A stretch of 64,000 bases of DNA from Candidatus Azambacteria bacterium (lineage in GTDB: Bacteria; Patescibacteriota; Minisyncoccia; GWC2-36-17; WO2-46-25). The notes beneath the pieces were generated by a model, which saw nothing but the letters and a program-made list of their open reading frames with translations, was not told where the DNA came from and did no database searches. Made by a program: the position numbers and the translations under genes. Shown piece after piece: positions 2,525-36,412 of this stretch (positions within the stretch are counted from its first letter, which is position 1; every line of letters starts with the position of its first letter). The DNA lies in NCBI GenBank assembly GCA_016234725.1, contig JACRAK010000025.1, positions 5,713-69,712 of the forward strand. The letters are read 5' to 3'.

Positions 2525-3112
2525 ATGGCAATCGCACTCGAAAAGATCCAAAAATTACGCGAGCAGACGATGGCGTCTCTCAACGATGTGAAAAAAGCGC
2601 TTGATGAAGCAGAGGGCGATGAAGAAAAAGCCCTTTTTATTTTAAAGAAAAAAGGAAAGATCATCGCGGATAAAAAATCCTCGCGCGAAACGAAGGCGGG
2701 CATCATCACCTCCTACATGCATGGCGAGGGGAGGATCGGCGTACTTTTGGAGCTGAAATGCGAAACGGATTTTGTCGCAAGGAACGAAGAGTTCAAGGAA
2801 CTTGCGCATGACATCGCGCTCCATATCGCGGCGATGGCTCCTCAGTATGCGAAGCCCGAAGACGTGCCTGAGCATGCGCTTGCCGTAGAAATGAAAATGT
2901 TCGAGGAGCAGACAAGCGAACTCAAAAAACCCGCGGAGATCGTGAAGCAGATCATCGAAGGCAAGGTGAAGAAATATTATGACGAGGTGTGTTTGTTGAA
3001 TCAGCCATTCGTGAAAAATGACACTATGACCGTGAAAGACCGCATCGCGGAAAGCGTCTCGAAACTCGGGGAAAACATTGAAGTGGGTAGGTTCGCGCGG
3101 TTCGCGATGTAA
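2525..3112 (+). CDS. tsf: Elongation factor Ts (short form)
   Basis: N-terminal UBA-like motif (LREQTMASLNDVKKALDEAEGDEEKALFILKKKG) and EF-Ts dimerisation core, 195 aa. Confidence 0.88.
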   Translation: MAIALEKIQKLREQTMASLNDVKKALDEAEGDEEKALFILKKKGKIIADKKSSRETKAGIITSYMHGEGRIGVLLELKCETDFVARNEEFKELAHDIALHIAAMAPQYAKPEDVPEHALAVEMKMFEEQTSELKKPAEIVKQIIEGKVKKYYDEVCLLNQPFVKNDTMTVKDRIAESVSKLGENIEVGRFARFAM

Positions 3113-3131
3113 TATTGAAGCGGGTTCCACT

Positions 3132-3533
3132 ATGGTCTCTCTTTCTCTCGTTTTTGCAATTCTCTTTTTCGCTTCACTCGGTGGCGCGATATTCATGGCG
3201 GTGAGAAAGGCGCCTGTGCTTGCGCGGATACCCGCAGAGTCGCTTCCCAACCAAGAAACATTCTTTGCTTGGGCGGCGCGAATAGCGAGGATACTGTTCA
3301 CCGCGCTGCATCCTCACCAGATAAAGATGTATGCGGTCGCGCAGACCGCGAAAACATTGCACATGTTTCGTGTTCTTTCTTTTAAAATACATCGGTTCGT
3401 TGATGCCATGGCGCACACCGCAAAGAAGAAATCGCAGGAAATGGAACGAGAGCATCGATCGGCGGCTCCTTCCGATGCGCAGGAGGGAGAAGCGGGGCGG
3501 GACGCAGGGAACGATGCGCATCGGAAAGAATAA
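3132..3533 (+). CDS. Hypothetical small membrane protein (single predicted TM helix)
   Basis: ORF with a hydrophobic N-terminus (VSLSLVFAILFFASLGGAIFMAV) and no recognisable domain. The start is uncertain; the longer ORF from 3078 overlaps the end of tsf. Confidence 0.25.
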   Translation: MVSLSLVFAILFFASLGGAIFMAVRKAPVLARIPAESLPNQETFFAWAARIARILFTALHPHQIKMYAVAQTAKTLHMFRVLSFKIHRFVDAMAHTAKKKSQEMEREHRSAAPSDAQEGEAGRDAGNDAHRKE

Positions 3534-3550
3534 GGTGTTGTTGCGCGTGC

Positions 3551-3836
3551 GCCACCTTAGCTCAGTTCACCCTCCTAAATTTTGTGGAGCAAAACTTTGG
3601 AGGGTAAAGAGCAACTGTTTCTTGCCCGCCCATCTTTTTATGCCGATGTAGCTCAGTGGTAGAGCAACTGTTTTGTAAACAGTAGGTCGTCGGTCCGATC
3701 CCGACCATCGGCTCCCGTTTTGTCTGAAGCGTAGCGAAGTTACAAAACGCAGTCCAGCGAAGTCGTGGCTCACGGAGCATAAAAGATAGGCGGGTGAATA
3801 AACAGTAGGTCTTCGGTTCAAATCCGAAAGGTGGCT
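3551..3836 (+). pseudogene. Split/interrupted tRNA-like gene: 5' piece 3551-3566, D-stem and anticodon 5' strand 3609-3618, 3' piece 3802-3836, enclosing an intact tRNA-Thr
   Basis: Acceptor halves GCCACCT (3551-3557) and AGGTGGC (3829-3835) are perfectly complementary. The 3' piece has an anticodon stem, V-loop and canonical T-arm (TTCGG-TTCAAAT-CCGAA). The D-loop carries a 35-nt hairpin (3570-3604), and the anticodon-loop position is filled by about 185 nt that include tRNA-Thr. Confidence 0.4.
3642..3713 (+). tRNA. tRNA-Thr (anticodon UGU)
   Basis: Cloverleaf read by hand: acceptor GCCGATG/CATCGGC, D-arm GCTC-AGTGGTA-GAGC, anticodon stem ACTGT/ACAGT with loop TTTGTAA, and T-arm GTCGG-TCCGATC-CCGAC. 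The T-loop has an unusual C at position 55. Flanked by 18-bp inverted repeats at 3624-3641 and 3777-3794. Confidence 0.8.
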
Positions 3837-3853
3837 CAGTTACATAACAACAT

Positions 3854-3938
3854 GCGCAGATGGCGGAGCGGCCAATCGCACTTGACTGTAAATCAAGCGC
3901 CCGAACGGGCTACGCAGGTTCAAATCCTGCTCTGCGCA
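3854..3938 (+). tRNA. tRNA-Tyr (anticodon GUA), long variable arm
   Basis: Acceptor GCGCAGA/TCTGCGC, anticodon stem CTTGA/TCAAG with loop CTGTAAA, and a long variable arm CGCCCGAACGGGCTAC, giving 85 nt. Confidence 0.85.
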
Positions 3939-4103
3939 CAACAGCAAAAAGGAGGCAAGGATTTTTCTTTGGCGTCTTTTTGCTGTCGATTCAGGAGGAT
4001 TTGAACCGCGGGCCGCAACCCACAAAGAGTGGGTGTAGGTTTCGAGCACAGCAGTGCGAGAGGCAAATCCTGCTCTGCGCACCAATTTTATTAAGAGAAT
4101 CAT

Positions 4104-4670
4104 ATGTTGACATACAACGAATTACGGAGAGGAACTTTTCTTTTATTGGACGACGAACCGTGGGTCGTCGAAGAATTTGAATTTTTGCGCATGCAGCAGC
4201 GCAAGCCCGTTGCAAAAGTGAAGATAAAAAGCCTTATCACCGGCAAAGTGCAGGAACGGACGTTTCACCAGAACGAATCGGTGGAAGAAGCGGTGCTTGA
4301 GAAAATGCCCGCGCGATTCTTGTATGAAAGCCGCGGCGAGTTCTGGTTTGATGAGCCGGGGAATCCGAAGAACCGCTTCTCGTTCACCCGTGAAGAGATC
4401 GCGGATATCGCGGAGTTCTTAAAACCGAACCTCGAAGTGATCGCGCTGAAGTTCGATGAGAAGATCATCAACATCGAGCCGCCGGTGAAGGTGGATTACA
4501 AGGTGGTGATGGCGCCGCCAGCTATTCGCGGCAACACCGCGCAGGGAGGCAATAAGACGGTGACGCTTGAGAACGGGCTTGAGATACAGGTGCCGCTGTT
4601 CGTGAACGAAGGCGACATCATCCGCGTGAACACCCAGCTGAAAACATACGTTGAAAGGGTGGGAAAATAA
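4104..4670 (+). CDS. efp: Elongation factor P
   Basis: 188 aa with an EF-P N-terminal KOW-like region and C-terminal OB domains (..GKVQERTFHQ.., ..IEPPVKVDYKV.., ..GDIIRVNTQ..). Confidence 0.88.
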   Translation: MLTYNELRRGTFLLLDDEPWVVEEFEFLRMQQRKPVAKVKIKSLITGKVQERTFHQNESVEEAVLEKMPARFLYESRGEFWFDEPGNPKNRFSFTREEIADIAEFLKPNLEVIALKFDEKIINIEPPVKVDYKVVMAPPAIRGNTAQGGNKTVTLENGLEIQVPLFVNEGDIIRVNTQLKTYVERVGK

Positions 4671-4778
4671 TATTGACGAAATCGGTATACATGCTACTAT
4701 CGCTGCAAAAGCGATAGTTTGCTTTTATACGGCATTATATCGATATCACGTACGTTAACAATACAAGGAGGTGGAGAG

Positions 4779-5087
4779 ATGAGAACCACATGCAGGAAGC
4801 ATGAAGCAGGGATCCATCAGTGCATTGAGAAGATCATAAACACATGTAAGCAGAAAATGATCCAGGTGCCGTTTAAGGATAAGCCGGCGCATATTATGCT
4901 GAACTGCAAGCAGGTAGACGACATTCTTGCGTATGCGGCCGAGGAAGCATATCACCCGAAGGAGGAATGTGCGCTGAAGTGGGAACCCGTGATGTGTTGC
5001 CATGAGCCCGATCTCATGTGTGAAAACTGCGGCAGATCTTTTAGGGATAGAGTGATAGAGAGGGCGCGAGGGAGTGGCGTGCTGTAG
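4779..5087 (+). CDS. Small Cys/His-rich protein, paralog 1 of a tandem triplet (unknown family)
   Basis: GGAGG ribosome-binding site 8 nt upstream of the ATG at 4779. Shares the motifs HxxIxECIEKIIN, LxCKQVDDIL and a C-terminal CxxC with the ORFs at 5463 and 5795. Confidence 0.5.
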   Translation: MRTTCRKHEAGIHQCIEKIINTCKQKMIQVPFKDKPAHIMLNCKQVDDILAYAAEEAYHPKEECALKWEPVMCCHEPDLMCENCGRSFRDRVIERARGSGVL

Positions 5088-6191: not shown

Positions 6192-9100
6192 ATGAATTTA
6201 TATACAGCAGCCAGATTCTCTTCATTCGTTTCCCTTGCCGTTTTTATCGCGGTTGGTTTATGTGTATCACCGGTATTTTCCCATACCGTTTCTGCCGCTC
6301 CTTATTTTTACTTTGATGCTGAGAGCGGCACTGCGGGCGAGAGCCTTACTAACCCGCCTTTTTGTCAGACCGACTGCGGTGAAAGCTACCAAACAGGAAC
6401 GGTCGAATCTGCCGGAGGCGCTCCGCAAGGAACCAACTATTTTCAGTGGCACATCGCCAACCTTCAGCATTCTGTTTACAACATCGTTCATAACCCAAGC
6501 ACATTTCCTTTTAATCCGCCATTAGGGAGCACCATGTACTTGGCTTATTATTTTAATTATTCACGGGTCAATGGCGTAGATGTCTGGCATGAAGTTGACG
6601 ATAGCGCCGACAAGGGGATCGAACTTACCGGATCGGGCATACGATGGATAACGAGTCCCGGTCATTGGGGTTCGCTTGCAAACAATCAAGACCATCACTA
6701 TACCATCTGGATGGGTAATCCGACCTATCATCTCAATCCGCAATTTGAAGGCAATCCGTATTGGACGGTGGTTCCTCCCAATCAGAGCGGGTATAGCATC
6801 GCCGCCCCGCCCCAACTGGAATATGAACGATGGTATTCGGCCGTTATGGCAGTTAAGCTGGCTACAGATAATACCGGATCGGTTACCTTGTATCTTGATG
6901 GAGTAAAAATACTGGAATGGAACAACATCATCACTGCCGCAAACACCGCGCCAACCATAGAACACATAACAATGGGCGGGACCATTGCCCAGCCCGCCTA
7001 TGACACGCCGGAGCATTACAGAAAATACGACGCGTTAATGCTTACTGATAATTGGCAGGATATCGTTAACGGCGGATATCTTGGAACTTCATCAATCGCC
7101 GATACCCAAGCGCCGACCGTACCCAGCGGCCTTATTGCCATCGCCGCTTCTTCCGCGCAGATCGATCTTTCTTGGACGACTTCTACCGATACCATAGGAG
7201 TCACCGGATACACAATCTACCGAGACGGAACTCAAATTGCCACTTCCCCAACCAACTCATATGCAAACACCGGCCTTTCTGCTTCCACTCTCTACACATA
7301 TACCGTTTCCGCATATGATGCCGCCGGAAACAATTCCGCTCGATCCGCGATCGTATCAGCGACGACGCAGGCGGTACCGGTTGTCGCAACACCTTTCGGC
7401 ACTCCCGTCCTCAATTTCTCCGATCTCACTTCCGGCCCTAAGACCGGTTGGGAGGGATCGACTACTCAAGGATCGGCCGTCTCTATTTGGGGCAGCGGCT
7501 TTGGCTCATCAAGAGGTTCTAGTTATGTCACGGTCAATGGAGCCCAGCTTACTGCCGCCAGCGATTACGCAGAGTGGGGGGTGACAACGAACAACGCCAG
7601 GGGGCTAGAGAGAATTACATTTTGGTTAAATAATTTTTCCATCGACGGACCCGGCGGTATTACCGTTACCGTAAATGGCGAGACATCAAACACGCTCCCA
7701 TTTACCGTGCGGGCAGGAAATATCTATTTTATTGATGGCACAAACGGAAGCGATTCTTTTAATGGGGAAAAGGCGGTGAGCGGGGCAAGCGGAGGGCCAT
7801 GGAAACATTTCTATATGGCATCTCCCACGTACAATAGCGCTTTTCATGCCGGTGATATCGTTTATGTCAGGGGGGGTATTTATAATGAGATACACCCCAA
7901 CTCCGGGTCTGACCCTCTTATTATGTTTAATAACGTTCAGGGCACATCGGATAGTCCTTACATGATAGCCGCATTCCCTGGTGAATTTCCTCAGCTTGGC
8001 GATCAAGGGCATACCAAGGGAATATACAATCGCCAACAGGACGGCGGCGGTATACCATCACATGGCATAACTTTTTCAAAATTTCTATGGTCTCCCGGGT
8101 GCGAGGCGATCAACATTTGGGGAAATTATTGGCGCATTGTCGGCAACACGTTAAAAGATAATATCTGCGCAAGCCAGTCCGCCGCCCTTTCATCGACTAA
8201 TTCTGCCTATACCGAGGTATTGGGGAATGTTTTTGATCACAATGGAAACCCGGAATCCCAACTCCAGCATCATCTTTATTTCACTTCAGTATGTTTGGAT
8301 TACGGATATCAAAATTGTGCCGAATCCCATCATAATACGCTTGCATGGAATGAAACGATGAATGGACCAGGCTCGGCGGGGAACGGATCAGAATCCTGGG
8401 CCATTAAAACATGGATAGCAGGCACCGCGCTGACCTCCCACGATTTTTATATCCATGATAATTATTGGCACGATGAGCCGGGAGAAGCGATTTGGCTGTA
8501 TGCAAAAGTCAAAGATATTTACATTTACAACAATATCTTTGAGAAGGTAAATTTTTACAACAAGAAAGGAGGGATACGTTCTCAGGCTTTGGCCGGAAAT
8601 GCGCCCGCAGCAAACGGAAATTTATATTTATACAACAATACGTTTTACGACTGGAGCAACGGTGTTGATCAGGGGGCAATTGTCGCTTTTGGCGTGAATG
8701 ACCATTGGATCACAAAAAACAACATTTTTTATTCATCAAACCCGGCAGGATGGGTTTTGAGCGCGACGAATGGAGGCAGCGTTATATCCGATCACGACCT
8801 ATTCTATAATCACGGACAAATCAAATATAGCGGTGGAAATGTTACCACTACCAATGCGATTGTATCTGTAAACCCGCAATTTAGAAATAGTGCGACGCAC
8901 GATTTTTATTTAAACACCTCAAGTCCGGCAAAAGATGTCGGTGTCATGATAGATATTTTTAATAAAGACTATGACGGTATCTCCCGCCCTCAAGGCTCAG
9001 CATATGACATCGGCGCATACGAATATTATGAAGGCTCTGTTTCTGCCCCAGCTCCCATTGTCACTCCTCCGGCAAGCACACCAATAACCACACCTACCAC

Positions 9101-9638
9101 ACCGCCAACATCTTCCAGCGGCTCATCTTTTACCACCCCATCAGGGAATTCATCTTCGCAGACAACACCCTCTCCGGCTGCGAGCAACTCATCTCCTGCA
9201 ACTCCCTCAGGCATGAGCACATCCCCGGCAACTCACCCTTTAACCCAATCAACCGCATCACCATCTATCACAGAGGGTTCTCTCATTCGCGGCCCCGACG
9301 GCATTAAGGTGTATATTATCAACGCGCACGGGTACAAGCGCCATATCTTTAACCCCGCGATCTTCAATATGTACGGTCACTTCAAATGGAATGAAATTAA
9401 AAGCGTAGACCAACAAACACTCGATGCATTTAAAACATCCGATCTTTATCGGGCAGATGGGGATACTAAGGTCTTTTCCCTCTCTGAGATCAACGAAGCC
9501 CAAGGGCTTGCCCAAAAGCGCTGGTTTAACACCTCAGCCACAAAATTCCAACAACTCGGCTATACCTTTAATCAGGTCTTTATCATTAACCCGAGAGAGC
9601 GGGATTATTACCAGGAAGGCGCACCTATTACCAATTGA
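6192..9638 (+). CDS. Large secreted multidomain protein: signal/TM, ConA/LamG-like jelly-roll, fibronectin type III, right-handed beta-helix, Pro/Thr/Ser linker, C-terminal domain
   Basis: N-terminal hydrophobic signal. FN3 signature (APTVPSGL...LSWTTSTD...GYTIYRDG...YTYTVSAYDAAGN). Beta-helix repeats (NYWRIVGNTLKDN, NNIFYSS, ..YDIGAYEY). A PT-rich linker APAPIVTPPASTPITTPTTPPTSSSGSS. Confidence 0.7.
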   Translation: MNLYTAARFSSFVSLAVFIAVGLCVSPVFSHTVSAAPYFYFDAESGTAGESLTNPPFCQTDCGESYQTGTVESAGGAPQGTNYFQWHIANLQHSVYNIVHNPSTFPFNPPLGSTMYLAYYFNYSRVNGVDVWHEVDDSADKGIELTGSGIRWITSPGHWGSLANNQDHHYTIWMGNPTYHLNPQFEGNPYWTVVPPNQSGYSIAAPPQLEYERWYSAVMAVKLATDNTGSVTLYLDGVKILEWNNIITAANTAPTIEHITMGGTIAQPAYDTPEHYRKYDALMLTDNWQDIVNGGYLGTSSIADTQAPTVPSGLIAIAASSAQIDLSWTTSTDTIGVTGYTIYRDGTQIATSPTNSYANTGLSASTLYTYTVSAYDAAGNNSARSAIVSATTQAVPVVATPFGTPVLNFSDLTSGPKTGWEGSTTQGSAVSIWGSGFGSSRGSSYVTVNGAQLTAASDYAEWGVTTNNARGLERITFWLNNFSIDGPGGITVTVNGETSNTLPFTVRAGNIYFIDGTNGSDSFNGEKAVSGASGGPWKHFYMASPTYNSAFHAGDIVYVRGGIYNEIHPNSGSDPLIMFNNVQGTSDSPYMIAAFPGEFPQLGDQGHTKGIYNRQQDGGGIPSHGITFSKFLWSPGCEAINIWGNYWRIVGNTLKDNICASQSAALSSTNSAYTEVLGNVFDHNGNPESQLQHHLYFTSVCLDYGYQNCAESHHNTLAWNETMNGPGSAGNGSESWAIKTWIAGTALTSHDFYIHDNYWHDEPGEAIWLYAKVKDIYIYNNIFEKVNFYNKKGGIRSQALAGNAPAANGNLYLYNNTFYDWSNGVDQGAIVAFGVNDHWITKNNIFYSSNPAGWVLSATNGGSVISDHDLFYNHGQIKYSGGNVTTTNAIVSVNPQFRNSATHDFYLNTSSPAKDVGVMIDIFNKDYDGISRPQGSAYDIGAYEYYEGSVSAPAPIVTPPASTPITTPTTPPTSSSGSSFTTPSGNSSSQTTPSPAASNSSPATPSGMSTSPATHPLTQSTASPSITEGSLIRGPDGIKVYIINAHGYKRHIFNPAIFNMYGHFKWNEIKSVDQQTLDAFKTSDLYRADGDTKVFSLSEINEAQGLAQKRWFNTSATKFQQLGYTFNQVFIINPRERDYYQEGAPITN

Positions 9639-9771
9639 ACCGGTGCGGGCGAGCGCGTGTAGGAGGTGCGTGATAGAATGTTTTCTTATGTGCTGGTAGA
9701 CTAATATTCTCCACAGTAGTCGCTTTGCTTTATGAGAAAAATAGCATATAATCGCATAATAAGCTATTTTT

Positions 9772-10365
9772 ATGGATCTTTCACGTTCTTTACTTGAGAA
9801 GTTTTACATAAAAAAGAACAGATCTGTTTCCGATATTGCGAAGGCACTTCGCTGTTCTGAGCATAAGATAAACTATTGGCTCGCGAAATTCACTATTCCA
9901 AAACGATCGATCAGTGAAGCGATCTATGTAAAAAACCACCCTCGCGGTGATCCTTTCAAAGTAAAAAAACAATTAACGAGCCGTGAGGTAAAACTTCTTG
10001 GGCTTGGGCTTGGGCTTTATTGGGGCGAAGGGAACAAGAAGAATAAGGTGTCGCTGCGATTAGGGAATACGGATCCGAGGCTGATAAAGATGTTCATGGA
10101 TTTTCTAGAAGAGATTTGCGGAGTGGCGCGAAACGCTATTACATTCAATCTCCTTATTTTTAATGATATCAGCGTATCTGCGGCAAAGCGATTTTGGGTT
10201 GCGGCATTGGGTATTCGCCCGGAACAGATACGAGGCAAAGTTATTGTGCTGAAGTCGGGGCGCATCGGCACATATAGACAGAAATCAAAATATGGAGTAT
10301 TAATATTACAGTATCACAATCGAAAACTCCGTGATATACTATGCGGGATGATTGAAAAATTATAA
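9772..10365 (+). CDS. HTH protein with a degenerate LAGLIDADG-like motif (possible free-standing homing-endonuclease relic)
   Basis: N-terminal HTH (SVSDIAKALRCSEHKINYWLAKF) and the motif KLLGLGLGLYWGEGNKKN resembling LAGLIDADG. The catalytic acidic positions are not clearly conserved. A TATAAT -10 box sits at about 9748. Confidence 0.3.
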   Translation: MDLSRSLLEKFYIKKNRSVSDIAKALRCSEHKINYWLAKFTIPKRSISEAIYVKNHPRGDPFKVKKQLTSREVKLLGLGLGLYWGEGNKKNKVSLRLGNTDPRLIKMFMDFLEEICGVARNAITFNLLIFNDISVSAAKRFWVAALGIRPEQIRGKVIVLKSGRIGTYRQKSKYGVLILQYHNRKLRDILCGMIEKL

Positions 10366-10458: not shown

Positions 10459-10743
10459 GCCGTTGTAGCTCAGTTGGTAGAGCAACTCCATGGTAGAGCG
10501 TTTTTTCTGCCCGTAGCGAGGGAAACTTCGCTGATGAATCCGAATAACGGTTAAAAACTTAGCACAAAGTTAAGACCGTGGCGTTATCCTTTAGTGTTTT
10601 CTGGAGAATAAAGCCCGAACGACTGACAAGGAGGGCTGAATCAAAGTATGCCCAAGATACAGTCTAGCCCTCTCTATACGTGCATTAAAAAAGAGAGGTG
10701 TAAGCGAAGGAGTAGGTCGCCGGTTCAACTCCGGCCAACGGCT
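10459..10743 (+). tRNA. tRNA (probably Thr-GGU, anticodon assignment tentative) interrupted in the anticodon loop by a group-I-like intron of about 215 nt
   Basis: 5' exon GCCGTTG-TA-GCTC-AGTTGGTA-GAGC-A-ACTCC; 3' exon GGAGT-AGGTC-GCCGG-TTCAACT-CCGGC-CAACGGC, giving a perfect cloverleaf. The intron carries group I core-like elements: GCGAGGGAAACTTCGC, GAATCCGAAT, a P7-like GACTG...AAGATACAGTCTAG, and ends in G before the 3' exon. Confidence 0.6.
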
Positions 10744-11005: not shown

Positions 11006-11088
11006 CGGCCTGAGGGCCGCGTCGTGGGAGCTTAGGTAAGTGGTATACCTGCTGTCTCCAACCCGCCTAAGTTTTTGCGGAGGAGAAT

Positions 11089-11160
11089 GGGGGCATAGTT
11101 CAATGGTTAGAACGACGGTCTCCAAAACCGTTAATCGGGGTTCGACTCCTCGTGCCCCCG
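11089..11160 (+). tRNA. tRNA-Trp (anticodon CCA)
   Basis: Acceptor GGGGGCA/TGCCCCC, D-arm GTTC-AATGGTT-AGAAC, and anticodon stem ACGGT/ACCGT with loop CTCCAAA. Flanked by 16-bp inverted repeats CCCGCCTAAGTTTTTG (11062-11077) and CAAAAATTTAGGCGGG (11161-11176). Confidence 0.85.
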
Positions 11161-11219
11161 CAAAAATTTAGGCGGGCGATTCCCCTGGCTCCCGCATTAG
11201 TATTGGGGGGAGAAAAAAG

Positions 11220-21130: not shown

Positions 21131-23607
21131 TCGTCGGCGCTTCGCTTTATTTTTTCATTATAGTGACGGTCATCGCCCTCGGGGCCGTTCTTTTTGTTGT
21201 GCCGTATCTGCTGCGGGTCCGCAGGAAACAGGAGATCGACTACTCGCTGAATCTCGCGCTGCTGCTCATTTCCTTGCCGCTCCATAAAGCGAAGCAGGCG
21301 AACGTGGAAGAGATCAGGAAGCTCATCGCAGTGATGGAGCAGTTTTACGCGGGCATCGTGCGCGTAGAGGAGGGGTGGCTCAAGGGGATGTTCTCCGGGT
21401 CATCGGCGCTGTCGTACGAGATCGTCCTGCCGGCGATCGGTGAGGAGATCCATTTTTACATCGGCGTACCGCGCAAATACGTTGAAACGGCGGAAAAGCA
21501 GATCACCGGTTTTTTGAACGAGGCAAAAGTGGAACGGGTGGACGACTACAATATTTTCAATCCGGTCGGCGTCAGCGCAGGATCCTCGCTCACGCTTTCG
21601 CACAGTTTCTATCTTCCCGTGAAGACGTACCAACAGCTTGAGATCGACCCGCTTAACTTCATCACCAACGCGATGTCGAAACTCGAGTTCCGGGGCGAAG
21701 GGTGCGCCCTGCAGGTGCTTGTGAAGCCCAATAGATCATGGCAGGAGGAAGCGCACAAAATAATATGGGAGATGAAAAGCGGTAAGACATTCAAGCAGGC
21801 GTACGCGCATGTGACAAAAGGCGCGGTGCAGGCGCTTGTTGAATCATTGCAGACAAAAGCGAAAGAAGAGATAAGCAAAGCACAGCAGGAAAAGGAAAAA
21901 GCGCAGGAGCGATTCCGCACCGTGGATGATGCGACCATCAAGGCGCTTGAGCAGAAAGCGTCCAAAGTCGGGTTTGACATCAATGTCCGCATGGTGGTGT
22001 CGACGCTGACGCAGACGCGCGCAGACGCGATCCTCTCGAGCATCGAAAGCTCATTCTCCCAATTTGAAAACCCGAACCTCAACGGGTTTATCGTCAAACG
22101 CGCCACGGGCAGGCAACTTGCAAAACTTATCTATGATTTTTCATTCCGCAATTTCAACACCGGCCAGCGGATGATCCTCAACACCGAAGAGCTTACGAGC
22201 GTTTTCCATTTCCCGACGCCGTATCTGGAAACCAAAAAGATCAAAGCACTCAAGAGCCGTGTGGCGCCATTGCCGACGAACATGCCTCTAGAGGGGCTGG
22301 TGATCGGCATGAACGTGTATCGCGGGGAGGAGCGGGAAGCGAAGCTGTCTACAGAAGACCGCCGCCGTCATATGTATATTGTAGGCCAGACTGGCACCGG
22401 TAAATCCGTGTCGCTCCAAAACATGATCCAGCAGGATATCGAAAACGGCGAAGGGGTGTGCTTCATAGACCCGCACGGCGAAACGGTGGAAGCGGTGCTC
22501 GCGAAAGTCCCGAAACATCGCGCCGACGATGTGGTGGTGTTCGACCCGGCAGATCTTGAACGTCCTATCGGCTTAAACATGCTTGAATACGATCCTGCAA
22601 GGCCGGAGCAAAAAACATTCATTGTGAATGAGCTCATCAGTATTTTTGACAAGCTGTACGATCTGAAAGCAACGGGAGGGCCGATGTTCGAACAATATAC
22701 GCGCAATGCACTCTTGCTCATCATGGCCGATCCGGAGAGCGGCTCCACGCTGCTCGAAGTGCCGCGCGTTTTTTCCGATCCGACATTCCGCAAAATGAAG
22801 CTCGCGAAAGTGCAGGATGTAGTGGTGAAGAATTTCTGGGAAAAAGAAGCGGAGAAAGCAGGGGGTGATGCGTCGCTTGCCAATATGACCCCGTATATCA
22901 CCAGCAAGTTCAATACGTTTATCGCAAACGAATTCGTGCGCCCGATCATCGCGCAGCAGCACAGCACCATCAAGTTCCGCGACATCATGGATAACAAAAA
23001 GATCCTACTCGTCACGCTTGCGAAAGGCAAGATCGGCGAGATCAACAGCAACTTGCTCGGCATGATCGTCATCGGCAAACTGCTCATGGCGGCGCTGTCG
23101 CGCGCCGATGTGGCGGAAACGGAGCGCAAAGATTTTTATCTCTACATCGACGAGTTCCAGAATTTTGCGACCGATTCTATTTCCGTGATATTATCAGAGG
23201 CGAGAAAGTACCGGCTTGCGCTCACCATGGCGCATCAGTTCATCGGCCAGCTGAAGGAAAATATCAAGCAGGCGGTGTTTGGCAATGTCGGCTCGATGAT
23301 GGTGTTTCGCGTGGGCACGGAAGACGCGGAATTCCTCCAAAAGCAGTTCGCGCCGGAATTTGAAGCAAACGACATCGCCAACCTGGATAATCTCAATGCG
23401 TATGTGAAAGCGCTGGTGAACGGGCAGGCGGTGAAGCCGTTCAATATCATCATGCCGCTCCCCAAGCAGGGGAATCCGGAAGTCGGGGCTATCCTCAAAG
23501 AACTCTCGCGGCTCAAATACGGGCGCGACCACAAGCAGGTGGAGCTTGAGATCCAAGAACGGTTCAGGACGCTTGCGCCTTCTCCGCTTCCTCCGCCTAC
23601 TAAATAA
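21127..23607 (+). CDS. VirD4/TraG/TraD-like type IV coupling protein ATPase with an N-terminal TM segment
   Basis: N-terminal TM (LYFFIIVTVIALGAVLFVVPYLL), Walker A YIVGQTGTGKSV, and Walker B FYLYIDEFQNF followed by ..ILSEARKYRLALTMAHQFIGQL.., the TraG-D_C/T4CP pattern. Confidence 0.65.
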   Translation: MIVGASLYFFIIVTVIALGAVLFVVPYLLRVRRKQEIDYSLNLALLLISLPLHKAKQANVEEIRKLIAVMEQFYAGIVRVEEGWLKGMFSGSSALSYEIVLPAIGEEIHFYIGVPRKYVETAEKQITGFLNEAKVERVDDYNIFNPVGVSAGSSLTLSHSFYLPVKTYQQLEIDPLNFITNAMSKLEFRGEGCALQVLVKPNRSWQEEAHKIIWEMKSGKTFKQAYAHVTKGAVQALVESLQTKAKEEISKAQQEKEKAQERFRTVDDATIKALEQKASKVGFDINVRMVVSTLTQTRADAILSSIESSFSQFENPNLNGFIVKRATGRQLAKLIYDFSFRNFNTGQRMILNTEELTSVFHFPTPYLETKKIKALKSRVAPLPTNMPLEGLVIGMNVYRGEEREAKLSTEDRRRHMYIVGQTGTGKSVSLQNMIQQDIENGEGVCFIDPHGETVEAVLAKVPKHRADDVVVFDPADLERPIGLNMLEYDPARPEQKTFIVNELISIFDKLYDLKATGGPMFEQYTRNALLLIMADPESGSTLLEVPRVFSDPTFRKMKLAKVQDVVVKNFWEKEAEKAGGDASLANMTPYITSKFNTFIANEFVRPIIAQQHSTIKFRDIMDNKKILLVTLAKGKIGEINSNLLGMIVIGKLLMAALSRADVAETERKDFYLYIDEFQNFATDSISVILSEARKYRLALTMAHQFIGQLKENIKQAVFGNVGSMMVFRVGTEDAEFLQKQFAPEFEANDIANLDNLNAYVKALVNGQAVKPFNIIMPLPKQGNPEVGAILKELSRLKYGRDHKQVELEIQERFRTLAPSPLPPPTK

Positions 23608-23640
23608 TTCACCCTGTTAAATGATTTTAAATTCCATGCT

Positions 23641-23898
23641 ATGTTTTATTACGCCTATGTCTTACAATCTTTAAAGGATAGTAAATTTTACACGGGGTAT
23701 ACTAAGAATTTAAAATCACGATTTGAGCAACATAATAAAGGACTTAGCGAATCAACCAAGGATAGAAGACCGCTTAAGTTAATTTACTACGAAGCATGTT
23801 TGAACCAACAAGATGCCACGCATAGAGAAAAATATCTGAAAACGTACCATGGGAAAATGTTTATAAAAAATAGGCTCAAATCGTATTTAACAGGGTAA
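23641..23898 (+). CDS. GIY-YIG nuclease family small protein (UPF0213/YhbQ-like) in an AT-rich cassette
   Basis: Motif YAYVLQSLKDSKFYTGYTKNLKSRFEQHN. Markedly lower GC than the flanks. Flanked by inverted repeats CACCCTGTTAA (23610-23620) and TTAACAGGGTA (23887-23898 and 23910-23920). Confidence 0.6.
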   Translation: MFYYAYVLQSLKDSKFYTGYTKNLKSRFEQHNKGLSESTKDRRPLKLIYYEACLNQQDATHREKYLKTYHGKMFIKNRLKSYLTG

Positions 23899-23923: not shown

Positions 23924-24586
23924 ATGGAACAACAAATCGCAGTGCCGGGAAAAAAAGCTATCGCATTCACCAGGACCGACGCCATCGCAAGCGTCGCGCT
24001 CGGGCTTATCATGGGCGTGCTCATCCCATTCATTTTAGGCAGGATAGGAAAAAGCGTCCCGATGCAGAACTATCTTATCATTGCGTTTCCTCTCGCGTCG
24101 CTTGTGGGGCTTTATATCGCGTCGCTCTTAAGCAAAGTGGTGCTGGTGCTGTATCAGGTAGGGAAGTTCGGCATCGTGGGGTTCACCAATTTCGTGGTTG
24201 ATACGGGCGTGTTTCATGTCATCATCGCGCTCTCGGGCTCGGCGCAGTCACAGCATCTTTTTTCCGTATTCTCTATCCCGCTCACGACGTGGACGTTCTT
24301 CAAAATACTGTCATTCATCGGCGCGAATGCGCATAGCTTTTTTTGGAATAAATTCTGGACATTCGGTCAGAAAGAGGTGAAAACCGCAAAGAAAGAATAT
24401 GTCGGGTTTTTCGTGATCAGCGTGGGCGGCCTGCTTATCAATAGCGGTGCGTTCTCCGTGGCATTCGCCTTACGGCCTGAAGGCGCTTCCGAGGCGCTGT
24501 GGGGCACGATAGGCGTCGCGGTGGGGTCCGTCATCGGCCTATTATGGAATTTTGTGGGGTATAAATTCTTTGTATTTAAGAAATAG
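23924..24586 (+). CDS. GtrA-like polytopic membrane protein
   Basis: GtrA family signature FGIVGFTNFVVDTGVF and multiple TM helices. Confidence 0.5.
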   Translation: MEQQIAVPGKKAIAFTRTDAIASVALGLIMGVLIPFILGRIGKSVPMQNYLIIAFPLASLVGLYIASLLSKVVLVLYQVGKFGIVGFTNFVVDTGVFHVIIALSGSAQSQHLFSVFSIPLTTWTFFKILSFIGANAHSFFWNKFWTFGQKEVKTAKKEYVGFFVISVGGLLINSGAFSVAFALRPEGASEALWGTIGVAVGSVIGLLWNFVGYKFFVFKK

Positions 24587-24615
24587 AATCTAGCATTTAG
24601 AATCTAGTATCTAGA

Positions 24616-24966
24616 ATGGGAGAAAAAACAAAATCATTCAGAAACCTGATCGTATGGCAAAAGTCACGTGATCTGGCGGTTGGGATATATCACTTAACAG
24701 ATGGTTTTCCGAGGTCTGAGATGTACGGCTTAACGAATCAGATGAGAAGAGCTGCTGTTTCCATTTCTTCCAATATCGCCGAGGGCTATCATCGATTTCA
24801 TGTAAAGGAAAAACGACAATTTCATGCGATCGCCTATGGTTCCGGCTCCGAGCTTGAGAGCCAAATAGAGATTGCCAAAGCGCTGTTCCCCGACTTACAC
24901 TATAAGGATGTTGAGGGGTTATTGTCAGAAGTGTTGAGAATTTTAAATACGTTTCTTAATAAGTAA
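24616..24966 (+). CDS. Four-helix-bundle protein ('23S rRNA intervening-sequence protein' family)
   Basis: Signature NLIVWQKSRDLAVGIYHLTDGFPRSEMYGLTNQMRRAAVSISSNIAEG. Bounded by TTCTAG-type short tandem repeats on both sides. Confidence 0.7.
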   Translation: MGEKTKSFRNLIVWQKSRDLAVGIYHLTDGFPRSEMYGLTNQMRRAAVSISSNIAEGYHRFHVKEKRQFHAIAYGSGSELESQIEIAKALFPDLHYKDVEGLLSEVLRILNTFLNK

Positions 24967-25022
24967 TACCCTGGTTTCTGGATTTTTCTAGATTCTAGCT
25001 TCTAACTTTTAGTTTCTATCTT

Positions 25023-26117: not shown

Positions 26118-26127
26118 GCTTATATTG

Positions 26128-26195
26128 CCGGGTCGTCTAACGGTAGGACAGCGCCCTTTGAAGGCGTTTATCGGGGTCCGAATCCCTGCCCGGCA
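26128..26195 (+). tRNA. tRNA-Gln (anticodon UUG)
   Basis: Acceptor GCCGGGT/GCCCGGC, anticodon stem GCGCC/GGCGT with loop CTTTGAA, and T-arm GGGGT-CCGAATC-CCTGC. Confidence 0.75.
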
Positions 26196-26199
26196 ACAA

Positions 26200-26505
26200 A
26201 TGAAACTTAAGCACGATAAATATAAAAAAGCGCGAGGAGGATATTCTCGGCTGTTAAGTATTTCTTGTCAAAAGTGTGATTCTTCAATTTGTCTGTATCA
26301 GAAAGATGGCTCAGGAAATTTACGGAGAATGTACATAGATCGAATTATCGAATCAAAAGTCTCTCTCGTAAGAAAAGATTTAACGTGTCCGAAAGGTCAT
26401 TTAGTAGGAGTTAAGACAATCTACGAAAAAGAAAACAGACCCGCATTTAGGCTTTTTGTTGATTCAATTGTAAAAAAGATTATTAAGGCTCGAGTAAAGC
26501 TTTAA
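26200..26505 (+). CDS. Hypothetical Cys-containing small protein (AT-rich islet)
   Basis: ATG at 26200 immediately after tRNA-Gln; the longer ORF from 26125 would overlap the tRNA. Low GC. Contains a CQKCDSSIC motif. Confidence 0.35.
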   Translation: MKLKHDKYKKARGGYSRLLSISCQKCDSSICLYQKDGSGNLRRMYIDRIIESKVSLVRKDLTCPKGHLVGVKTIYEKENRPAFRLFVDSIVKKIIKARVKL

Positions 26506-26566
26506 TATCGCGCATAGCCTCTAATTCTCGGTAAGAGCATCGCAACAAACTTGACATATATCATAT

Positions 26567-26941
26567 ATGATATATACTAAAAACAACGAATATTCTGTAA
26601 GGTTTTACAAAGATGCCGACGGTAATATTCCTGTCTTAGAATATATTGATGATCTTTCTACTAAGGAAAGGGCGAAGGTTTTAAAATATATTGAATTTTT
26701 AAGGGAACATGAAGGAGTGCTGGATGAGCCATATGCAAAGCACATTACAGGAAAGATAAGAGAATTAAGGGTGGATTTTGCGAAAAGCAGGCACAGGATC
26801 TTTTATTTTACGTTCATCGGGAAAACGATTATCTTATTACACGCTTTTTTAAAGAAAACCGCGAAAACACCGGTGAGTGAAATAAGACGCGCCGAAGAAA
26901 ATTATAATGATGCGATACATAATAAAAACATCTATGCATAA
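26567..26941 (+). CDS. higB: Type II toxin, HigB/Gp49-like (RelE/ParE superfamily)
   Basis: Pattern ..ITGKIRELRVDFAKSRHRIFYFTF..KTIILLHAFLKKTAKTPVSEIRRAEENY typical of the Gp49/HigB killer protein. Immediately upstream of an XRE-HTH gene. Confidence 0.55.
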   Translation: MIYTKNNEYSVRFYKDADGNIPVLEYIDDLSTKERAKVLKYIEFLREHEGVLDEPYAKHITGKIRELRVDFAKSRHRIFYFTFIGKTIILLHAFLKKTAKTPVSEIRRAEENYNDAIHNKNIYA

Positions 26942-27239
26942 GAAAAAACAATCAAAAAAAACTATAGATTTTCAGGAATATCTTTCAGGGCAATTAAAAA
27001 ACGCAACAGTAAAAAAGCATTACCATGAATACGGCAAGCAGCTTGAAATTGCCTATGAGATTGTGCAACTGCGGAAGAAAGAAAAGATGTCTCAATCGGA
27101 GCTTGCCAAGAGAATCGGTACCAGCCAGAGCAATATTGCGCGTATGGAGGCAGGGGAACAGAATTTTACGACAGACACCCTGCAAAAAATAGCAGTTGCT
27201 TTTAAACGCGATCTCAAAGTGGAATTTGTCGGGAGATAG
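26907..27239 (+). CDS. higA: XRE-family HTH antitoxin (HigA-like)
   Basis: HTH MSQSELAKRIGTSQSNIARMEAGEQNFTTDTLQKIAVAF. Overlaps the toxin stop. The start may be an internal Met near 26934. Confidence 0.55.
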   Translation: MMRYIIKTSMHKKKQSKKTIDFQEYLSGQLKNATVKKHYHEYGKQLEIAYEIVQLRKKEKMSQSELAKRIGTSQSNIARMEAGEQNFTTDTLQKIAVAFKRDLKVEFVGR

Positions 27240-27294
27240 ATTAAGGTATTTATCAGAGCTCGAATCCATCCTGCCCTGCAACATTAGTATTTTC

Positions 27295-27762
27295 ATGCCA
27301 CATATTCACGAAAAAATTGATTTTGTCGCAGATGTCTTTGTGGTCTACAAAGACAAGGTTTTGATCCGGAAACATGACAAACATAATATGTGGCTTGCAG
27401 TGGGCGGACATATCGAGTTTGATGAAGATCCTAACCAAGCCGCCATCAGAGAGGTAAAAGAAGAGGTTGGTCTTGATGTGGTATTGGCGGGAGCGCCGAT
27501 AGAGCATAAAGCAGAATGGGGTTCCGGAAAAGAATTGACTCCGCCGCGGTTCATGAATATTCATGCGATAACGCCGACCCATCAGCATATATCGCTGGTA
27601 TATTTTGCCAGATCACATTCAGACGCGATCGTCGATGAGGGGAGAGAAAAGAGCAACGGATGCAAATGGTTCAACAAAGAAGATCTTGAAAAGAACGAAG
27701 AGGGAATATCCGAGCAGATCAGATCATACGCGCATGCCGCGCTTGAAGAATTGGGAGAGTAA
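27295..27762 (+). CDS. NUDIX hydrolase
   Basis: Nudix box [26 protein letters not shown]. The start is placed at the internal Met (MPHIHEK) to avoid overlap with higA. Confidence 0.65.
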
Positions 27763-27777
27763 ATTGCCGATAACATC

Positions 27778-29599
27778 TATGAAACGATCACCAGCTTCAC
27801 AATTTCTCAATCGGTTGAATACGGAGTATTTTGCGTTGCATAAAGAATACGAGAAGTATTTTTGGATCTCGTATATGGGCGATCAGTCGGTAAATGCGAA
27901 AAAAGACCGCGCGCTTGCACAGCGCGATGCGTTCCGCGCAGAGCAAAAAAACGTCAAAAAAATAAAAGCGCTTTTCCCTGATGCCACTGCTCAGGAAAAA
28001 AAGCGTCTGGTGCTGTGGTTGAAATTTTTCGATTGCTATCAAGCTCCTAAAGACGCATTGCCGCTGAAAAATAAAATAAGCGCGCGCGAATCCGCACTGC
28101 TGAAAAAACAGGCAAAGCGAAAGGAAGGGTATATCGATCCGTATACCAAAAAATTCGTCCCCGCATCGGCCGTGAAAATGGCTATGATCATTGCGACACA
28201 CAGCGATGAAAAGATGCGCAAAGCGTGTTTTATGGCGCGCGAGAAGCTCGCCACCGATTTTATTCTCGAGTACATCGAGCTTGTGAATTTACGCAATGCA
28301 TACGCCCAGAAGCTCGGATATCAGGATTTTTATGATTATAAGGTTCAGCGGGAAGACGGCATGACAAAAAAAGAGCTCTTTGCGATCTTTACCGCCATTT
28401 ACGAAAAAACAAAATACGCAAAAAAGAATATCAGGGCATTGGAAAAGACCATGCCCGGTCTGCGCAAACCATGGAACTTCGGCTATATGATGGCGGGCGA
28501 TTTTACGAAAGAAGAAGATCCGTTTTTTCAATTTGATGAGGCGCTGACCCGCTGGGGTCGGTCGTTTGCCGCGCTCGGCGTTGATTTCAAAGGAGGAAAA
28601 CTGCAACTCGACCTTTTAGATAGAAAAGGGAAGTGGAACAATGGTTTTTGCCATTGGCCCGATATGGTGTCGTTTAAAAACGGAAAACGTATGCCGGGAA
28701 GCTCGAATTTCACCTGCAATGTCGTGTTCGGGCAGGTTGGCTCGGGGTTTAATGGCATTCATACGCTGTTTCACGAAGGCGGACATGCGGCGCATATGCT
28801 CAACAGCGAACAGGAAGATGTATGCGTGAATCATGAATACGCGCCCATGTCGATGGCGTGGGCGGAAACGCAAAGCATGTTCATGGATGCAATGTTTGGC
28901 AGTATCGAGTGGCGGAATCGCTATGCGGTAAACGCCGCAGGCGAGCCATATCCGTTTGAACTGTTTCAGCGAAAAACAAAAAAACTGCATCCGCTTCGCC
29001 CGCTTGGCATCAATGGCATTATGTTCGTGTCCAATTTCGAACGGGAAATATATGAAACAAAAGATCTGAATGCGGAGAAGGTAAAGACGATCGCGAAGAA
29101 AAACTTCAAGAAATATTTCGATCGGTCGGAAGATTCGCTATATGCTCTTACTGTGCCGCATGTTTATGCATGGGAAAGTTCCGGATCGTATCACGGTTAC
29201 GGGCTTGCAGAGATCGCCGTGAAGCAGTGGCGAGAGTATTTTTACAAAAAGTACGGCTACATTGTAGATAATCCAAGGGTGGGTGCAGAAATGGCGCGCG
29301 TGTGGGCGCTTGGCTCGGCACAGACATTCAATGAATTCGTCCAGTTCGCAATAGGCAAAAAGTTGAGCGCAGATGCGCTGTTAAAAAATATGACCGCTTC
29401 CATCGGCGAGATCGTCCGCACGGGTAAGCAAAGGATTGCCCGGCTTCAGAAAGTGAAGCCGTATGCAAAGAAGGTGCAGTTGGGTGCGGATATAAAAATG
29501 GTCAGCGGGAAAAAGACGATCGCCACGAATAAAAAAAGTTTCGAAGATATGGCGGGGAAATACAAGCAATGGCTGAAAACACAACGACATGATGCATAA
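27778..29599 (+). CDS. M3 family oligoendopeptidase (PepF-like)
   Basis: Zinc site HEGGHAAH plus a downstream Glu, about 600 aa. The start is placed at Met 27778; the ORF-track start at 27605 overlaps the Nudix gene. Confidence 0.6.
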
Positions 29600-29777
29600 A
29601 AAAGGCGGCGAAAGCCGCTTTATGTTTGGTTGTAAAATGATGGGAAATGAGGCATGATGGGAATGTAATCGTCGGTTTAAATATTGTCCTTGTCCCCATT
29701 TTCCCCCGCAACTTCACTGGCCAGTGGATGGCTTGTGGGGGCAACGGAGAAGTTGCGCAAGAAGGCAGTTGGGATAA

Positions 29778-30383: not shown

Positions 30384-30387
30384 AAAA

Positions 30388-30417
30388 GTCACCCTCCGCG
30401 AGGAGGGTGACTCTTGG
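30388..30417 (+). terminator. Hairpin terminator-like structure after the NYN gene
   Basis: GTCACCCTCC-GCGA-GGAGGGTGAC, a perfect 10-bp stem. The downstream T-run is weak. Confidence 0.4.
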
Positions 30418-30604
30418 ATGTAATACCCTTTCAGTTATGAGTAAACCGAAAGACATCATCAGTATATACAAATTAAAATTAAGAGTCAATGGTTTATGCA
30501 CAGTATGGTAATCTCAATGTTATTCTGTAAAACAGCGCAAAAGAGTCGATTTCCTTTATAATAAAAGGGTTTTAACGTTTCAGTTGAGAAATTGATAAAT
30601 AAAT

Positions 30605-34173: not shown

Positions 34174-34186
34174 CTAAAAACACAAT

Positions 34187-36384: not shown

Positions 36385-36412
36385 AAAATTGGCCGTTTGA
36401 TCAGATTGTTTA

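Follow-up and report, generated by a model that had tools for sequence, protein, structure and literature searches.

A tRNA-Thr gene nested between the halves of its resident counterpart in a Patescibacteria chromosome

Integrative elements, as far as PMC9897764 describes them, leave fragments of tRNA genes at attL and attR (Reiter 1989 and Williams 2002, cited therein). Group I introns occur in the anticodon loops of bacterial tRNAs (PMC3984707), and a model of tRNA-Thr gene disruption has been presented for Caldiarchaeum subterraneum (PMC3293823). SegB of phage T4, a GIY-YIG enzyme encoded in the phage tRNA cluster, recognises the tRNA T-arm and drives the inheritance of its own tRNA region (PMC2330249). 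Here we describe a locus at which a complete tRNA-Thr(UGU) gene lies inside a second, broken tRNA-Thr(UGU) gene. It is located in a 64-kb chromosome segment, the whole of which was analysed and is called the window below, from a groundwater bacterium of the candidate phyla radiation (CPR, Patescibacteria) near Candidatus Azambacteria. We hold with fair confidence that the resident gene, type A, was destroyed when a cassette carrying a foreign allele, type B, inserted into its anticodon loop, an event which may be termed a self-compensating insertion.

Integrative elements likewise insert in tRNA genes, often in the anticodon loop or the T-loop, with tRNA function kept and a partial tRNA left as a scar (as far as described in PMC9897764), and the window has, at 4064-4082, a 19-nt duplicate of the 3' end of tRNA-Tyr which resembles such a classic scar. 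The classic elements, in the outline given there, measure kilobases, encode an integrase, carry only the 3' part of a tRNA, which forms a hybrid working gene, and leave one 3' fragment at the far end. The Thr cassette, in contrast, is 178 nt long and without a protein gene, contains a complete tRNA, acceptor stem included, has inverted rather than direct repeats, and lies between 5' and 3' relics. An integrase att site was rejected because the insert contains no open reading frame (ORF), relics lie on both sides and the inner tRNA brings a 5' half of its own; the tyrosine recombinase of contig L207 has no homologue in the window.

In Caldiarchaeum, as here, populations differ at a tRNA-Thr locus and a 5' fragment of one allele stands upstream of a complete second allele, an arrangement ascribed to a mobile element (PMC3293823). 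That insert, however, is 1.8 kb long and encodes a recombinase, and the genes have spliceable introns (PMC3293823), whereas the present one is 178 nt, bacterial, without a recombinase and without any sign of splicing. The likeness to group I introns of tRNA genes lies in the anticodon-loop site, the sporadic occurrence among close relatives and the logic of homing (PMC3984707); unlike them, the insert has no ribozyme core (RF00028), its removal does not restore the loop, and compensation would come from the tRNA carried as cargo.

The tRNA region lies downstream from rpsB and tsf (Table 1). Contigs and metagenome-assembled genomes (MAGs) used for comparison are designated by L-numbers. The identity of elongation factor P (EF-P) to that of the window is 88-89% for two MAGs of the Azambacteria group (L002 and L003) and 74% for L004; a closer relative found through protein look-ups, L203/L204, shows 93%. 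ARAGORN and Rfam agreed near the locus: both gave the inner tRNA-Thr(UGU) and a tRNA-Tyr gene at 3854-3939 and no others, the outer gene remaining uncalled.

The outer gene had been noticed in a preliminary description of the sequence, and all the elements listed there were found where it had placed them. The acceptor stem is complete, with seven perfect base pairs (GCCACCT, 3551-3557, and AGGTGGC, 3829-3835), and the D-stem (GCTC, 3560-3563, and GAGC, 3609-3612), the anticodon stem (ACTGT, 3614-3618, and ACAGT, 3802-3806), the T-arm (TTCGG-TTCAAAT-CCGAA, 3812-3828) and the 35-nt hairpin in the D-loop (3570-3604) are present. The repeats bracketing the inner gene, reported as 18-bp inverted repeats, do stand at 3625-3642 and 3778-3794 but are not perfect: 16 of the 18 positions pair, with one C.A mismatch and one bulged T.

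The cassette is composed, in order, of CTTG, the left repeat, the inner tRNA, the trailer, CACGGAG, the right repeat and TGAA. It is joined to the outer gene through TT/CTTG on the left and TGAA/TAA on the right, with T34-G35 gone. The 287-nt stretch was predicted to fold in the nested shape (minimum free energy -107.8 kcal/mol, z = -6.4), with the outer acceptor stem, the D-stem and its hairpin, an anticodon stem running on into the repeat stem, and the T-arm. This nested anatomy is far beyond chance. Both junctions were reproduced in an independent Logan assembly (SRR12113407), the left one by unitig L202 and the right one by unitig L001; the nested locus is real, unusual and not an artefact.

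No promoter-like or terminator-like site was found on the plus strand within 3300-4200, and a promoter or terminator role of the repeats was set aside. Rfam detected no known RNA family in the intervening pieces of eight nested loci. A tmRNA (transfer-messenger RNA) or permuted tRNA was rejected: ARAGORN found none, and the acceptor stem lacks G3:U70.

Table 1. Positions in the window of the nested tRNA-Thr locus, its neighbouring genes and the related repeat elements.
Feature	Position	Strand	Remarks
rpsB	1735-2454		gene order: rpsB, tsf, small conserved ORF, tRNA region, efp
tsf	2525-3112		
Small conserved ORF			between tsf and the tRNA region
efp	4104-4670		follows the tRNA region
Outer tRNA-Thr(UGU), type A, 5' piece	3551-3565	+	acceptor 5' strand, positions 8-9, D-stem 5' strand, start of D-loop
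Palindromic element, 42 nt, without cargo	3566-3607	+	TTCA-CCCTCCTAAATTTTG-TGGAG-CAAAACTTTGGAGGG-TAA; stands in for D-loop CGGC
Outer tRNA, middle piece	3608-3620	+	end of D-loop, D-stem 3' strand, A26, anticodon-stem 5' strand, T32, T33
Cassette, 178 nt, bounded by inverted repeats	3621-3798	+	stands in for T34-G35 of the outer anticodon loop
Inner tRNA-Thr(UGU), type B, presumed functional	3642-3713	+	ARAGORN; Rfam 72 bits
Hairpin trailer, 57 nt	3714-3770	+	between GGCT direct repeats
Outer tRNA, 3' piece	3799-3836	+	T36-A38, anticodon-stem 3' strand, variable loop, T-arm, acceptor 3' strand, discriminator U
Repeat pair	1555/1674		upstream of rpsB; 82 nt between arms, no tRNA
Repeat pair	3570/3604		empty, in the dead D-loop
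Repeat pair, variant	3625/3794		around tRNA-Thr
Repeat pair	11062/11176		around tRNA-Trp
Nested tRNA-Trp locus, same design	11026-11194	+	compared with the intact resident type in L203
Repeat-ended element	23604-23898	+	TTCA-CCCTGTTAAAT ... ATTTAACAGGG-TAAA around an 85-amino-acid GIY-YIG nuclease ORF (23641-23898)

Comparison with related genomes identified both genes. The same tsf-orfX-tRNA-efp locus of L003 holds an intact tRNA-Thr(UGU), GCCACCTTAGCTCAGCGGCAGAGCAACTGTTTTGTAAACAGTAGGTCTTCGGTTCAAATCCGAAAGGTGGCT, to which the three outer pieces (15, 13 and 38 nt) are 100% identical; the 5' piece corresponds to L003 positions 2745-2759 and the 3' piece, with 38 of 38 nt, to 2779-2816. Since the outer pieces match the L003 gene everywhere, they represent the resident orthologue, type A, interrupted at two places. 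The inner gene (GCCGATG...CATCGGCT, with T-loop TCCGATC) is 100% identical to the sole Thr(UGU) gene at the orthologous locus in L002, L004 and L203. Its cloverleaf and anticodon are in place, its Rfam score lies well over the gathering threshold of 29 bits, and it is presumed to be a working gene. The outer gene is a very young pseudogene around a replacement that was probably acquired horizontally.

The two genes share a 28-nt core from the D-stem to the variable loop, which bears out the identity of anticodon stems and variable loops first reported, and differ in the acceptor stem and T-arm. The two are not different isoacceptors, as had been suggested: both read UGU and are alternative alleles, or xenologues, of one tRNA. 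The outer gene is indeed a scar, and unspliced, but not one left by local duplication: the acceptor stem and T-arm differ, and the inner allele is resident in other lineages. Of the more speculative idea of an intron-like insertion carrying its own tRNA, the anatomy stands (a discrete inverted-repeat unit, in an anticodon loop, with a tRNA as cargo) and splicing does not. The T-loop of the inner gene (3694-3700) has, unusually, C in place of U at position 55; C55 recurs in about a dozen of the approximately 120 Thr(UGU) genes surveyed below, including cassette-borne genes of L155 and L139.

The outer gene has neither a contiguous cloverleaf nor a 7-nt anticodon loop. No pair of cut points gives TTTGTAA; the loops obtained are of 13, 9 or 5 nt, excision of 3625-3798 leaving 9 nt (TTCTTGTAA) and excision of 3621-3798 leaving 5 nt. 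The D-loop lacks G18/G19 even after hypothetical removal of its hairpin. Because no 7-nt loop can be restored, G18/G19 are missing and outer halves are lost in relatives which share the insertion, the outer gene is dead.

The group I core reported as absent from the insert was not found: RF00028 gave no match at E <= 10 within 3000-5000, and none in the whole window at the gathering threshold. A group I intron was rejected on this result and because the exon ends do not rejoin to a normal loop, although the insert sits in the anticodon loop. A protein-spliced intron of the archaeal or eukaryal type was also rejected, the junction being a near-continuous helix; junction inspection and the predicted fold revealed no bulge-helix-bulge motif, that is, no two 3-nt bulges 4 bp apart.

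The outer gene was then followed in the relatives. L203 has the same left junction as the window (ACTGTTTCTTG/CCCGCCC), an unbroken D-loop which keeps AGCGGTA, and no outer sequence 3' of ACAGTA; AGGTGGC is nowhere in the locus. As the D-loop palindrome is missing from the outer gene of L203, it entered after the gene was broken. In L002, TTCTTG and the left repeat alone remain of the outer locus. Across the window, L203 and L002 there is no difference in the left junction or the left repeat.

Differences from the window at fourfold-degenerate sites amount to 0.41 for L203, 0.33 for L002, 0.55 for L003 and 0.60 for L004. The non-coding parts of the cassette are 100% identical where fourfold sites differ by 33-41%. 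The Thr insertion is present in the window, L203 and L002 and not in L003; L004 has the type B gene and the trailer with no trace of an insertion. A similar Tyr insertion, described below, is present in L002 and L003 and not in the window or L203. These character states conflict with the genome tree; no single tree accounts for both insertions unless transfer or precise loss is allowed. Judging from these comparisons of sequence, the nested allele probably spread recently by a horizontal route, through recombination anchored in the conserved tRNA halves.

The trailer is 95% identical to that of L004, where it also follows Thr(UGU); in L203 it is missing at the Thr(UGU) site and follows Thr(GGU). 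Its copies, of 57-69 nt, lie between GGCT(C) direct repeats on different tRNA-Thr genes (window, 3714-3770; L203, approximately 4343-4420; L004, 3376-3433), and the stem shows one compensatory change, CGTTTTGT/ACAAAACG versus CGCTTTGT/ACAAAGCG.

The repeats around the inner gene belong to a family. The motif CCCKCCTAARTTTT occurs in the window solely as inverted pairs; four pairs of one family lie within 1.5-11.2 kb (Table 1), and no convincing pair was seen in the rest of the window. In the empty copy the loop is TGGAG, which matches the CGGAG spacer at the start of the Trp cassette. Within the window, then, one element family includes copies that hold a tRNA, a copy that holds a GIY-YIG ORF, and empty ones. 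Palindromes with the ends TTCA/TTTA-CCC...GGG-TGAA/TAAA are common in the survey contigs, and the window, L158 and L092 have the common ends CTTG-CCC...GGG-TGAA, the target in L092 being the D-loop of tRNA-Val. L203 and L002 share the pair upstream of rpsB at the equivalent position, its arms 100% conserved and its interior diverged, and L003 lacks it; the pair lies just upstream of a conserved promoter-like TTGCAA...TATGGT.

Like the intervening sequences (IVS) of 23S rRNA and the MITE (miniature inverted-repeat transposable element) and REP (repetitive extragenic palindromic) repeats, these are small, non-coding, multicopy, strain-scattered inverted-repeat inserts which replace the hairpin loop of a structural RNA. 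Unlike the tRNA split in its anticodon loop, rRNA with an IVS works as fragments; MITEs, for their part, have target-site duplications and carry no tRNA in replacement of their target. The Thr cassette has the terminal inverted repeats of a MITE (16/18 bp), and the same end design is seen at 3566-3607, 23604-23898, L158 and L092. Candidate target-site duplications are TG..TG at the Thr cassette of the window, L158 and L092, and TATTG at 1555/1674, with none at the D-loop or Trp copies. An integron attC site was rejected: GCCTAAG/CTTAGGC of the repeat resembles the attC core and inverse core, but other subfamilies have the opposite order, and the resemblance was taken as coincidence. The window itself contains a 23S_rRNA_IVP gene with a repeat bracket of its own. 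There, at 24581-25014, a 27-nt imperfect inverted repeat encloses a 116-amino-acid 23S rRNA intervening-sequence protein gene (PF05635, E = 1e-31), resembling an IVS-type cassette in intergenic DNA.

Other loci have the same design. In the nested tRNA-Trp locus of the window, the resident 5' half (11026-11061, through A37) is followed by the left repeat (11062-11077), an inner tRNA-Trp very different from the resident one (11089-11160), the right repeat (11161-11176) and a 3' remnant beginning in the T-loop (11177-11194); the repeats form a 16-bp stem, and the resident type is intact in L203 (4710-4781). At the tRNA-Tyr gene of L003 and L002, outer halves equal to the intact tRNA-Tyr of the window enclose a tRNA-Tyr of another sequence, with CCAAAGT/ACTTTGG and CCCGAT/ATCGGG as its brackets. 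The outer tRNA-Tyr is perfect in L003 and carries 11 changes in L002, including broken pairs in the acceptor and variable arms.

A 212-nt insert (10496-10707) interrupts a tRNA-Thr(GGU) gene at 10459-10743 directly after A37. All helices of this tRNA are perfect: the acceptor stem (GCCGTTG/CAACGGC), the D-arm, the anticodon stem and the T-arm. The gene was not called by ARAGORN, gave a weak, partial Rfam match of 21 bits, and is uninterrupted in L203. The insert holds a decayed second 3' half, and RF00028 gave no match to it at E <= 10. Downstream from the tRNA-Tyr gene of the window, within 3940-4083, a terminator-like hairpin (3941-3986), which shows compensatory changes in L203, is followed by a 77-nt element with an antisense copy of the T-arm (3993-4007) and by the 19-nt tRNA-Tyr 3'-end copy mentioned above, which starts in the T-loop; the element keeps about 97% identity in L203, although neutral divergence from that genome is 41%. 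Analogous duplications of tRNA 3' ends were seen in L004, L184, L194 and L178. A minus-strand tRNA at 54669-54740, with 41 bits in Rfam, was missed by ARAGORN.

The recurrence of such relics was assessed in a survey of 120 metagenome contigs matching the shared 28-nt core, with 294 tRNAs. A fragment resembling the tRNA's own 5' half was found within 400 nt upstream in 23 of these and a 3'-half fragment downstream in 29, against 1 (5' half) and 2 (3' half) in the wrong-side controls. For tRNA-Thr(UGU), relics lay on the correct side at 21 of 117 loci (approximately 18%) and on the wrong side at one. Inverted repeats bracketing tRNAs were enriched about tenfold over shuffled pairings. Replacement scars at tRNA genes are thus common in similar metagenome contigs. 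Viral contigs with the same core yielded no relics at their 24 tRNA-Thr genes, which also have no brackets and were therefore taken as a negative control. A phage origin of the inner tRNAs was rejected on these viral genes and because exact searches of viral contigs gave no match to either of the two inner tRNAs, Thr and Trp.

Bracketed tRNAs between relic halves of the same tRNA were found in L122, L155 and L173, and all 11 further bracketed cases listed also lie between relic halves (L158, L153, L112, L098, L151, L106, L092-Val, L187-GGU, L101-Ala, L200 and L139). The left arm begins with CCC(C/G/T) and has a T-rich end at tRNA position +1, and the junction mostly separates G35 from T36. The bracketed loci have at least 12 different repeat sequences, which implies many independent events. 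The relics range from nearly intact to heavily decayed, with frequent extra small hairpins.

The repeat-ended element at 23604-23898 contains a small GIY-YIG nuclease ORF (Pfam E = 3.6e-15). It is a candidate autonomous partner of the cassettes; a partial Pfam scan found no transposase in the window. A second, partial copy of its right end lies 17 nt downstream, and a second small GIY-YIG ORF occurs at 42125-42397. A jackhmmer search seeded with the 23641-23898 ORF returned 14 small GIY-YIG ORFs in 1.69 Mb of sequence. The 11 that are on metagenome contigs are all found no more than 150 nt from a tRNA gene, a zone making up 10.8% of the sequence (p = 2e-11). tRNA relics were found at 8 of 9 loci with a small GIY-YIG ORF and at 26 of 111 without (p = 1.5e-4), and several of the ORFs stand between successive relic layers (L082, L101 and L195). 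The proteins are about 85 amino acids long and consist of the catalytic domain only, without a recognisable DNA-binding domain.

These genes invite comparison with SegB (PMC2330249) and with the collaborative homing of introns that lack an endonuclease: GIY-YIG genes lie among tRNA genes, and an insertion that disrupts the target gives immunity. SegB drives the replacement of the tRNA region of a rival genome by gene conversion (PMC2330249), and the survey ORFs abut tRNA genes and relics. A GIY-YIG gene beside its tRNA target was found statistically in the survey contigs and not at the Thr locus itself. Unlike SegB, the proteins consist of the catalytic domain alone, the Thr locus of the window encodes none of them, and they belong to a cellular chromosome, not to a phage co-infection; SegB homing, moreover, gives a clean replacement without nested relics.

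Taken together, these observations suggest the following course of events. An inverted-repeat cassette with a whole tRNA would insert into the loop of a tRNA gene, and only insertions into cognate genes would survive. Essential tRNA genes are apparently, and by our assumption, single-copy in small CPR genomes, so an insertion would survive only if the same decoding function is supplied; this would explain why the two members of a nested pair always have one and the same anticodon. Transcription would enter from the rpsB-tsf side, and the inner tRNA would be released by processing of the RNase P and RNase Z type, with the outer halves as by-products. Later, a copy of the same palindromic family without cargo would have landed in the D-loop of the dead gene. 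The disrupted target would be immune to further cutting, and the nested allele could convert intact alleles between lineages with the tRNA halves as homology arms: the logic of intron homing, with a replacement tRNA in place of splicing. The relics would in time decay or be deleted, and attract further small palindromes. Small GIY-YIG nucleases appear the most likely drivers, and may have a role in tRNA replacement. In this scheme the anatomy, the orthology of the outer gene, its decay in relatives, the recurrence and the link with GIY-YIG genes are observed, while the chemistry of insertion, homing, RNA processing and the enzyme at work are inferred.

The locus is one instance of a widespread and apparently undescribed mode of tRNA gene turnover. 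A broader proposal is put forward only tentatively. CPR bacteria might contain an undescribed class of selfish, self-compensating elements, inverted-repeat cassettes of 100-200 bp with a whole tRNA as sole cargo, which home into a loop of the cognate resident tRNA gene (mostly at G35/T36), killing and replacing it; small GIY-YIG proteins of a single domain might drive them in trans, and the tRNA set might be continually overwritten horizontally, with nested layers of relics left behind. In the literature on CPR/Patescibacteria concerned with tRNA introns, disrupted tRNA genes, MITEs or GIY-YIG proteins, tRNA-in-tRNA cassettes were not found described.

Several observations weigh against a recently spread mobile cassette, and some of them point to constraint on a composite RNA, the main alternative to recent horizontal spread. 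The window and L203 show no difference in approximately 78 nt covering the relic 5' half, the junction and both repeats, next to diverged spacers, which could reflect such constraint; the nested regions of L098 and L112 are about 93% identical outside the inner tRNA, versus 77-87% in three of four other aligned segments; and the conserved rpsB arms with their diverged interior are a poor fit to a purely parasitic repeat, so that the repeat may also be a host motif. The right junctions differ (TGAATAA in the window, CAAGAA in L203), the Thr cassette has no clean target-site duplication, a non-exhaustive Pfam scan found no transposase, integrase or nuclease gene at the Thr locus, and the nearest GIY-YIG ORF, at 23641, is 20 kb away. 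In addition, all sequences are metagenome assemblies. Under the composite-RNA explanation the insertion would be old and vertically inherited, with the relic halves and the repeat stem under selection as a folding insulator or as a scaffold for RNase P/Z or RNase III; as an insulator, the relic halves would pair together and the leader with the trailer, preventing mispairing with the nearly identical inner tRNA. The absence of differences at 41% fourfold divergence and the rpsB arms speak for it, as do the strongly stabilised predicted fold and, in L098/L112, one compensatory change in the repeat stem and a relic region more conserved than three of the four segments. Against this, the same inner tRNA stands without either repeat in L004 and with the left one only in L002, so the repeats are not required for expression of the inner tRNA; the loss of the outer 3' half in L203 leaves its conserved 5' half without a partner; and the outer tRNA-Tyr of L002 has broken pairs. 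Template switching, too, can correct palindromes without selection. We consider this explanation unlikely, and return to insertion of a cassette carrying its own replacement as the preferred one.

No dedicated mobile element would be needed if the locus were a repair scar, in which a broken resident gene, cut possibly by a small GIY-YIG nuclease, was mended from foreign DNA taken up by the cell through short-homology recombination, the inverted repeats being incidental to the donor tRNA which they flank. In its favour, GIY-YIG genes lie among tRNA relics, many relics are mere 3'-end duplications from the T-loop (the tRNA-Tyr copy at 4064-4082, L184, L194 and L178), and relic layers are heterogeneous (L173 and L082). 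We consider this account likewise unlikely: the repeats form a dispersed family with defined ends, varied cargo and empty copies, in different loops of different tRNAs, and in most cases the brackets adjoin the inner tRNA at +1. A true intron, with the 178-nt insert and perhaps the D-loop hairpin removed and the exons ligated, would give two tRNA-Thr, one of them intron-encoded. The anticodon loop is a site of both bacterial group I and archaeal tRNA introns, the repeat stem brings the exon ends together in the predicted fold, and the outer stems are perfect in the window; but the failed searches for a group I match (E <= 10), a bulge-helix-bulge and cut points giving TTTGTAA, the missing G18/G19, and the loss or decay of outer halves in L203, L002, L122, L155 and the tRNA-Trp locus of the window make it very improbable. 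An assembly chimera of two co-occurring strains, with types A and B joined through the shared core, is the least likely of the explanations considered. The core is common to many organisms, and the Logan unitigs break within it at 3669/3670. However, one unitig (L202) spans the outer 5' piece, hairpin, left repeat and inner 5' half, and the other (L001) the inner 3' half, trailer, right repeat and outer 3' piece; the left junction recurs in independent assemblies of other samples (L203, L204 and L002), L205 has the same right repeat and right junction as L203, and analogous nesting occurs in dozens of unrelated contigs.

If insertion of self-compensating cassettes is the correct explanation, essential single-copy tRNA genes of the smallest bacterial genomes would be repeatedly overwritten by tiny selfish elements. 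Full replacement would be a third route to a tolerated insertion, beside splicing and the carriage of a partial gene copy, and the recurring small GIY-YIG proteins would gain a possible role. Such loci would also provide a natural model for the origin of split and intron-bearing tRNA genes and for collaborative homing, and tRNA phylogenies in these lineages may follow the cassettes and not the organisms. For annotation, tRNA finders miss or miscount nested loci; in the window the split tRNA-Thr(GGU) gene and the relics were not called.

Some further features of the window were noted. A low-GC stretch at 26200-38000 (0.40-0.47), directly after a tRNA-Gln gene (26126-26197), encodes a HigB/Gp49-HTH (helix-turn-helix) pair, an NYN-domain protein, a Type ISP restriction enzyme, Fic and YgjP; neither an integrase nor a repeated tRNA-Gln 3' end was found in the window. 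A 1148-amino-acid fn3/polysaccharide-lyase-like protein is encoded, together with adjacent ORFs, at 6192-10365, between efp and the Thr(GGU)/Trp genes; in L203 no such gene separates efp from lysS. Two related structured elements, at 48978-49086 and 59201-59334, have 29-bp outer stems of unrelated sequence, paired in both, around a shared core, CTTTTATCTTAAC...GCAGCCCTTCATT...GGGCGTGAGYGGATTAAAG, without a match in Rfam. The element at 59201-59334 has an additional CCTGCCTGCCGGTAGGCAGG hairpin, of a kind also seen inside the tRNA relics of L112, L098 and L151.

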